In this document: positions 23,176 through 23,789 of the stretch, one piece after another
How the letters are laid out: every line of letters starts with the position of its first letter
Numbering within the stretch: position 1 is the stretch's first letter
NCBI RefSeq assembly: GCF_050920415.1
Contig: NZ_CP169309.1
Length of the DNA: 64,000 nucleotides
DNA from: Escherichia coli
GTDB lineage: Bacteria; Pseudomonadota; Gammaproteobacteria; Enterobacterales; Enterobacteriaceae
Direction: 5' to 3' (one strand)
Position numbers and translations under genes: made by a program
The notes under the pieces: generated by a model
Databases searched by the model: none
What the model was told of the DNA's origin: nothing
What the model saw: the letters and a program-made list of their open reading frames with translations, nothing else

Positions 23176-23289
23176 AGCAGTACCTCCTTCACAATGGCGA
23201 GGTTCCTGTATAACCCAAAAATGTGACGGAGATCTATATTTTTTGTGTATGTTTTGTTCAGATCGATTAAATGGGCATCTCCCAACCAA

Positions 23290-23373
23290 CGCCGGATGCG
23301 GCGTGAACGCCTTATCCGTCCTACCCGTAGGCCGGATAAGCCGCGCCTGGCGGCGCATCCGGCAAGACAAACC
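23290..23373. repeat. REP/BIME element upstream of psiE
   Basis: gccggatgcggcgtgaacgccttatccgtcctac / gtaggccggataagccgcgcctggcggcgcatccggc. Confidence 0.75.
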
Positions 23374-23494
23374 GCACCATAGCCTGTAATGCAAAAATCA
23401 CCCATTCAGGTGATTCCCAGCCACCAGCAATGCGCGAAAAATCGACAATGTTCCTCTGGAACAAATGAAACGTAACCTGATAAAGGTGGTAAAA

Positions 23495-23743
23495 ATGAAG
23501 CCTTATTTTGCTGCTTTGATGTTATCAGTCTCTGTCCTTCCTGCTTATGCTGGTCCGCTCGGTACTGCTGATAAAGCCGACCTACCGCAAAGCAATGTCT
23601 CCAGCCCAATGATGGCCCAGTCGCTCAGGCAACCAGACCTGCAACCAATATCGACGGACAGGAAAACAGAATGTTTTCGCCTTTACACACCAGATCGCAA
23701 ACCGGGGGTGAACTGCGTTCCTGATGGCTCGACAGGCCATTAA
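23495..23743 (+). CDS. Small secreted protein, 82 aa, with cleavable signal peptide (position matches what I recall as yjbT in K-12; unverified)
   Basis: AGGTGG RBS 7 nt before ATG; MKPYFAALMLSVSVLPAYA signal peptide followed by hydrophilic mature part with two Cys. Confidence 0.6.
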   Translation: MKPYFAALMLSVSVLPAYAGPLGTADKADLPQSNVSSPMMAQSLRQPDLQPISTDRKTECFRLYTPDRKPGVNCVPDGSTGH

Positions 23744-23789
23744 GAATGAAGGTGCCAGTGAGTGCGAAAACTGGCACCTTTCCTCTGAC

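Follow-up and report, generated by a model that had tools for sequence, protein, structure and literature searches.

YjbT, a small predicted periplasmic protein encoded between psiE and yjbH in Escherichia coli: start codon, conserved C-terminal cysteine module and genomic context

The open reading frame (ORF) in the gap between psiE and yjbH is a genuine protein-coding gene, yjbT, which is already catalogued and named and which founds the Pfam family PF17089. Comparison across genera points to the C-terminal 25 residues, with their two cysteines, as the selected part of its product, and we consider it probable that YjbT is an envelope protein, exported by the Sec pathway, in which a loop closed by a disulfide is offered to a binding partner; we would place much less confidence in any specific partner. 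The new points refine an existing annotation: (i) the start codon, (ii) the Cys-loop module, (iii) the narrow and patchy distribution of what looks like a gene cassette, (iv) a pair of palindromes in the leader and (v) the status of the REP units upstream. They amount to a useful annotation refinement, not to a new kind of element. The gene is nonetheless one of the remaining K-12 genes without a known function, it is near-universal in E. coli, and beyond Escherichia the searches found it in only four genera.

Identity of the gene

The window analyzed here is a 64,000-nt stretch of E. coli DNA, in which the psiE–yjbH gap occupies positions 23176–23789. Both flanking genes lie on the minus strand, psiE at 22765–23175 (PF06146) and yjbH at 23790–25886 (from annotation and ORF), and the gap contains a single plus-strand ORF with its stop at 23743. 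Read from the start that is conserved across genera, the yjbT coding sequence of 82 aa plus stop extends from 23495 to 23743. The ORF matches Pfam PF17089 (YjbT) with 217.7 bits against a cut-off of 27 (E = 1.4e-65), residues 1–92 of the longer database form aligning to positions 1–92 of the 92-position profile. In MG1655 it is yjbT (b4620; 4,239,777–4,240,055, minus strand), named 'PF17089 family protein YjbT', and RefSeq names the product 'periplasmic protein' under one accession, WP_001295279.1, that is common to the source strain, K-12 and MS20674. The locus order psiE–yjbT–yjbH is as in K-12, which identifies the ORF as the ortholog of b4620, and the full-length PF17089 match together with purifying selection across genera places it far beyond chance. 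Conservation within the species is nearly complete: bases 22600–24000 are 100% identical to strain MFDS1022581 and find a match in 5,425 of 5,426 complete E. coli genomes, and the gap sequence itself is present at 80% coverage or more in 5,410 of the 5,426.

A sequence-only reading of this DNA had described an 82-aa ORF, a Shine–Dalgarno sequence and a REP element in a gap beside psiE and yjbH, and all of these elements are present. Its proposal of a genuine small exported-protein gene agrees with the PF17089 match, with the signal-peptide features recognized by a heuristic and with the conserved reading frame. Its remark that such small proteins are frequently unannotated does not hold for this one, given the locus tag, accession and Pfam family cited above.

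The literature on the gene is thin. Transcription of b4620 was detected in 7 of 7 RNA-seq conditions (PMC3734233), a gSELEX table enters yjbT merely as the neighbor of an FlhDC peak located inside yjbH (PMC9962212), and full-text search for yjbT and b4620 returned a further mention in a machine-learning feature list. The searchable full-text literature yielded no functional study of yjbT/b4620, the translation-related supplementary tables that were examined had no yjbT entry, and we found no direct evidence of YjbT translation, export, cleavage or disulfide formation (proteomics, PhoA fusions) in the searchable literature.

Translation start and signal peptide

The reading frame is 82 codons long from the ATG at 23495 and 92 codons long from the ATG at 23465. 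A Shine–Dalgarno sequence, AAGGTGG (23483–23489), lies 5 nt upstream of ATG 23495, and only a weak GGA is found upstream of ATG 23465. The leader motif [AG]AGGTGG is kept in seven of the eight aligned leaders and reads GAGGGTG in the eighth; the full arrangement AAGGTGG-N5-ATG is kept, and the upstream ATG absent, in Kluyvera, Pseudocitrobacter, Buttiauxella and the organism represented by metagenomic contig L005. At the DNA level, CTGAT(A)AGGTGGTAAAAATG is conserved across genera. The position of ATG 23465 is occupied by non-ATG sequence in Kluyvera, L005, Pseudocitrobacter, the P0015 locus and Buttiauxella. The divergent full-length members all begin at the position of E. coli Met11, and every genus retains the inner start.

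Translation most likely starts at ATG 23495, which is Met11 of the annotated protein. On the strength of the cross-genus comparison, the database model would start 10 codons too early, and the 10-codon N-terminal extension of the 92-aa form (MKRNLIKVVK; 23465–23494, plus strand), with an ATG in Escherichia only, is probably 5′ leader and not coding sequence. The shorter start with its canonical ribosome-binding site, which the sequence-only reading had preferred, is thus better supported than the database start. Within Escherichia the upstream ATG is always retained, and the 92-aa form could be made there too. The choice is without consequence for the final product, since removal of the signal peptide would leave the same mature protein in both models.

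The N-terminus of YjbT, MKPYFAALMLSVSVLPAYA, precedes a predicted cleavage site before GP, and residues 1–19 (23495–23551, plus strand) have the features of a Sec-type signal peptide cut at AYA/GP: a single basic residue is followed by a hydrophobic core, positions −3 and −1 are small (A-x-A) and there is no lipobox cysteine. These features, which are those expected for Sec export and processing by signal peptidase I, were judged with an n/h/c-region heuristic and not with a trained predictor. The same scan finds an equivalent site in every homolog, the best site falling after residues 19–21 in each of eight lineages. A lipoprotein signal was also considered, as a few distant members have a cysteine near the site (APC/Y, MTC/S), and was rejected: the −1 residue in these is P or T, and the E. 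coli protein has no such cysteine. The predicted mature protein of 63 aa is hydrophilic (GRAVY −0.79) and contains exactly two cysteines, in accord with the ~60-aa hydrophilic, two-cysteine mature part first proposed from the sequence; exactly two cysteines are likewise found in the mature part of each lineage.

A variable linker and a conserved C-terminal module

The predicted mature protein divides into two segments with very different histories. Residues 20–57 (23552–23665, plus strand) form a variable hydrophilic linker, with pN of ~0.5 between E. coli and Kluyvera-type sequences. Its length is roughly constant across the family (38 ± 4 aa) and a weak SNxxSP motif persists within it. AlphaFold2, run with a 14-sequence family alignment, predicts no secondary structure after the signal-peptide helix (mean pLDDT 55.5, pTM 0.13), a low confidence that may reflect the shallow alignment and not true disorder.

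Residues 58–82 (TECFRLYTPDRKPGVNCVPDGSTGH; 23666–23740, plus strand) make up a C-terminal Cys-x13-Cys module. Among 14 sequences from 5 genera, the residues that are invariant after the signal peptide are C60, P70, G71, N73, C74, P76 and D77, with T58 nearly so, giving the core motif T-x-C-[FY]-x8-P-G-[VIL]-N-C-[VI]-P-D. Mean pairwise identity over eight lineages is 0.43 for the signal peptide (residues 1–19), 0.20 for the linker (20–57) and 0.63 for the core (58–77), and the conserved block begins sharply at T58 in all lineages. Comparison of E. coli with Kluyvera-type sequences over residues 58–82 gives 14–18 synonymous and 0–1 non-synonymous differences (pS 0.76–0.96, pN at most 0.018), a non-synonymous deficit with binomial P = 3e-8 to 1e-11. 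Because synonymous sites are saturated, the conservation is at the level of the protein and not of an overlapping RNA or DNA element. Judged by these substitution patterns, residues 58–82 are the selected part of YjbT, and the Cys60–Cys74 loop with its P-G-[VIL]-N-C-[VI]-P-D core is the region to mutate. Sequence-profile searches found no relatives of the protein in the PDB (E up to 10), PHROGs, PADLOC or NCBIfam.

The tripartite pattern of signal peptide, fast-evolving middle and near-invariant C-terminal 20–25 residues is also what would be expected of a pre-pro-peptide, in which removal of the linker after export sets free a disulfide-closed C-terminal peptide of ~25 aa, perhaps into the medium, to act as a signaling molecule or effector. 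A precursor of 75–85 aa, similar in length to the 72 aa of the heat-stable enterotoxin STa, and the abrupt boundary at T58 would both suit such a scheme. We nevertheless consider it unlikely. The residues that precede T58 are RK, RR, HV, HR, RV, LN or YN in the different members, so that there is no conserved processing site; the module could form one disulfide, not three, and does not resemble ST, guanylin or any PDB chain (E up to 10) in sequence; and an adjacent exporter or maturation gene is present in none of the genomic contexts examined. The near-constant linker length and the SNxxSP motif further suggest that the linker is retained in the product. A broader version, to which we also give a low probability, holds that the sole selected product is the disulfide-cyclized peptide of ~25 residues, whether set free or held out on a disordered tether, acting as a ligand (signal, inhibitor or decoy) for a target in the envelope or the host. 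If true, this would define an unrecognized chromosomal secreted-peptide system, limited to Escherichia and a small number of its relatives among the Enterobacteriaceae of the gut and the environment, and carried as a cassette with its own operator-like palindromes.

Distribution and genomic neighborhoods

The yjbT family is tiny and patchy, being found in Escherichia, Kluyvera georgiana, Pseudocitrobacter, Buttiauxella and Shimwellia. A word-indexed search of 5.8 billion proteins returned 14 clusters when the query was the single sequence and 22 when it was the family profile, and HMMER, run exhaustively over 1.84 billion cluster representatives, found 12 matches. At the DNA level, a scan of ~100,000 species genomes recovered four Escherichia species and Kluyvera georgiana only; the other members, by their source names, are from Pseudocitrobacter, Buttiauxella (two lineages) and Shimwellia pseudoproteus. 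Six entries (P0006, P0012, P0013, P0014, P0017 and P0020) were left out as frameshifted artefacts of assembly or gene calling.

L004 (GCA_002230035.1), P0012, P0013, P0006, P0014 and P0020 are frameshifted or fused versions of yjbT, 60–162 aa long, from error-rich assemblies, and in L004 adjacent genes such as yjbH and a sugar transporter gene are likewise fragmented. Entries of this kind inflate the apparent diversity of the family.

Escherichia, K. georgiana, Pseudocitrobacter and the organism represented by P0015 share the order malG–psiE–yjbT–yjbH. Elsewhere the gene has other neighbors: it adjoins csbD and an NmrA-like gene in Buttiauxella izardii, a DUF2767 gene in a second Buttiauxella sp. 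and a GH1/PMI/PTS cluster in the metagenomic organism of contigs L005–L007, and it is flanked by abgT-like and NUDIX genes in Shimwellia. All full-length members, those in unrelated contexts included, have an open frame of 75–85 codons, a strong Shine–Dalgarno sequence and a signal peptide. Loss of the frame in close relatives had been named at the outset as an observation that would count against the gene, and the frame is conserved. We also note that in Kluyvera an extra gene, for a 151-aa hexapeptide-repeat acetyltransferase, lies between yjbT and yjbH (L013, 6377–6832; L008, 528–983), with no counterpart in E. coli.

These neighborhoods bear on the possibility that YjbT is an accessory of yjbEFGH exopolysaccharide export, for example by attaching to YjbH in the outer membrane or to the polymer. 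It is true that yjbT stands beside yjbH, and has a 3′ hairpin in common with it, in Escherichia, K. georgiana, Pseudocitrobacter and the P0015 organism. The two genes are convergent, however, and are not co-transcribed; the acetyltransferase gene separates them in K. georgiana; and yjbT is found in unrelated neighborhoods in Buttiauxella, Shimwellia and the L005 organism. Exhaustive searches gave the yjbT family from five Enterobacteriaceae genera only, and yjbEFGH is probably far more widespread in the Enterobacteriaceae than that. We regard a role in exopolysaccharide export as unlikely.

That the ORF is no functional protein at all, and instead a non-coding element (an sRNA, a 3′-UTR or an antisense RNA of yjbH) or an annotation artefact, could appeal to the lack of published protein-level evidence, the absence of a fold in the AlphaFold2 model and the very small family, but is effectively refuted by saturated synonymous sites alongside unchanged amino acids in the C-terminal codons, which nucleotide-level constraint cannot produce, and by the frame, Shine–Dalgarno sequence and signal peptide kept in every full-length member.

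On the other side of psiE, the segment 22672–22764, from the malG stop to the psiE stop, shows that the source strain has no xylE between malG and psiE. In K-12, xylE lies between these genes and the malH sRNA is annotated at the malG 3′ end. The xylE-less junction occurs in 1,786 of 5,425 complete E. coli genomes and, as it is also found in Kluyvera georgiana and Pseudocitrobacter, may represent the ancestral state. The malG terminator (22742–22759 plus T-run) is retained in the source strain.

The REP pair upstream of yjbT

Two REP units in inverted orientation, a BIME-like arrangement, lie at 23290–23364 between the promoter regions of psiE and yjbT, recognized from their inverted repeats and from Rfam alignment. 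These two inverted hairpins are the REP element noted upstream of the ORF in the sequence-only reading. Three matches to the Rfam naRNA4/REP model score 25.7–32.2 bits (E = 0.0016–0.044), and because these scores are below the gathering score of 59.5 (RF02564) we interpret the segment as REP sequence and not as an naRNA4 locus. It has the properties of REP/BIME elements, namely GC-rich imperfect palindromes of ~35 nt, alignment to the REP-derived naRNA4 model and many genomic sites; the REP part of the query has a median of 6 matching sites in each E. coli genome, in keeping with a dispersed repeat.

Alignment of the psiE–yjbT intergenic region across genera shows an ancestral spacer of ~190 nt with conserved blocks at both ends. 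The psiE-proximal block is CTGTATAACGCAAAAATGTGAcggAGATCTA, which we take to be the psiE promoter/operator region. Upstream of psiE, Escherichia, Kluyvera and Pseudocitrobacter have the block CTGTATAACcCAAAAATGTGACGGAGATCTA (23206–23237) in common. A TGTGA-N6-TCTA motif within it resembles a CRP half-site arrangement, and the block is presumably the known control region of psiE. In Escherichia, a REP block of ~90–125 nt is inserted exactly between the psiE- and yjbT-proximal blocks, and this block is absent from all other yjbT-bearing genera. Its content varies: two units are present in the source window and in E. albertii, E. whittamii and two further Escherichia species, about one unit in K-12 and only a remnant in E. 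coli MS20674, so that E. coli alone spans about 0 to 2 units. Whatever the REP content, the stretch that leads from AAAAATCACCC up to the start codon is essentially invariant.

By these alignments, the REP pair is a recent, polymorphic and dispensable insertion confined to Escherichia. It is not required for yjbT function, because the other genera lack it and some E. coli strains have kept little or none of it with the yjbT unit unchanged. The suggestion that it insulates yjbT from psiE transcription is not supported in the sense of read-through: the two genes lie on different strands and psiE transcripts run in the direction leading away from yjbT, which leaves nothing to be blocked. A topological role between the divergent promoters is conceivable, although nothing supports it.

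The REP sequence also has a likely side effect on annotation. PGAP/RefSeq calls a 47-aa 'hypothetical protein' with a TTG start (WP_000487760.1; 23321–23464, minus strand), which lies antisense to the yjbT leader and extends into the REP pair. This call is without a Pfam match, is absent from the MG1655 annotation (NC_000913.3) and is uncalled in a strain without the REP block. This ORF is probably spurious, a gene-calling artefact created by the REP sequence.

Leader palindromes and the 3′ hairpin

The yjbT-proximal conserved block is ~110 nt long and contains two palindromes, both identified in the cross-genus leader alignment and both unique within the window. The first, AATCACC-N6-GGTGATT (23396–23415, plus strand), is located ~99 nt before the start codon. 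It keeps this spacing in Escherichia, Pseudocitrobacter and the P0015 locus, is imperfect in L005 and Kluyvera, and is represented only by its 5′ half, AAATCACCC, in the non-syntenic Buttiauxella. The second, TGTTCC-N3-GGAACA (23449–23463, plus strand), is located ~46 nt before the start codon, and each of the seven non-Shimwellia lineages, syntenic or not, has the form GTTC(C)-N3-5-(G)GAAC. Both palindromes thus hold their spacing to the start codon even in genera where yjbT has moved to another locus. Both are predicted to fold as hairpins; RNAalifold finds no covariation in support of either (covariation term unfavorable at +1.31), the pairs being mostly invariant. We consider the two palindromes candidate operators or leader hairpins, the upstream one as an operator or RNA hairpin and the downstream one as an operator or 5′-UTR hairpin, and they offer candidate regulatory sites for yjbT at about −99 and −46.

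A consensus scan found no sigma-70 promoter site in 22650–23900. Two other possibilities noticed by eye were set aside: GGAAC(A)...CTGAT resembles the sigma-E arrangement GAACTT-N16-TCTGA, but with a spacer of only 11–12 nt, and a sigma-28-like CTGATAA has no matching −35 element.

Downstream, a hairpin with a perfect stem of 11–12 bp lies between the convergent yjbT and yjbH genes (23748–23781). Its folding energies on the two strands are −22.5 and −23 kcal/mol (z = −4.4 and −4.9), and an equivalent hairpin of different sequence is found 3′ of yjbT in five other lineages, none of the lineages tested being without one. It is likely to be a bidirectional terminator or a 3′ stabilizer; a simple terminator scan does not call it, the loop being 10 nt and the T-run weak. 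Where yjbT sits in unrelated neighborhoods, its leader elements and 3′ hairpin have moved with it.

A model for YjbT

In the model that we favor, translation would start at ATG 23495 to give an 82-aa precursor, whose Sec signal peptide of ~19 aa would direct it across the inner membrane, with signal peptidase I cutting after A19. The product would be a soluble envelope protein of ~63 aa (6.8 kDa), composed of a poorly conserved and probably disordered linker of ~38 aa followed by the strictly conserved C-terminal segment. Sec export and DsbA-dependent oxidation in the periplasm are established processes, and on this background Cys60 and Cys74 are expected to be oxidized, the disulfide closing the 13-residue loop C-[FY]-x8-P-G-[VIL]-N-C, which is followed by [VI]-P-D. 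The loop and the [VI]-P-D segment would together constitute the functional epitope, which binds a partner either within the envelope or beyond the cell, and the linker would act only as a spacer.

The gene forms a self-contained unit, consisting of a conserved leader/promoter of ~110 nt with the two palindromes, the ORF and a likely terminator hairpin. This unit has kept its position between psiE and yjbH in Escherichia, Kluyvera georgiana and Pseudocitrobacter and resides elsewhere in Buttiauxella and Shimwellia, with the REP pair as a later, dispensable insertion between two divergent promoter regions. Neither the REP pair nor yjbEFGH is a required context for yjbT.

Comparison with known systems

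The closest comparison is with the K-12 locus itself. The K-12 YjbT protein is identical to the WP_001295279.1 product encoded here, and its position between psiE and yjbH is also shared. The loci differ in that K-12 has about one REP unit upstream of yjbT where two are present here, and in that xylE stands beside psiE in K-12 and is missing here.

The REP pair resembles other REP/BIME elements of E. coli in consisting of ~35-nt imperfect palindromes of the GCCGGATGCGGCG...CGCCTTATCCGnCCTAC type that are inverted, dispersed and variable in copy number. REP elements are usually located after a gene or between co-transcribed genes, whereas the pair described here lies between divergent genes.

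The third comparison is with STa, whose 72-aa precursor comprises a signal peptide, a pro-region and a Cys-rich C-terminal mature peptide with three disulfides. YjbT is similar in being a short precursor with a predicted Sec signal peptide, a poorly conserved middle and a conserved, Cys-containing C-terminus that is expected to be oxidized in the periplasm. It differs in having no sequence similarity to STa, one potential disulfide instead of three and no conserved processing site. With no PDB match (E up to 10), only two cysteines and no conserved cleavage motif, YjbT does not qualify as an STa-like peptide. The genes also differ in kind, STa being encoded by a virulence gene of plasmids and transposons and YjbT by a chromosomal core gene of commensal and laboratory E. 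coli.
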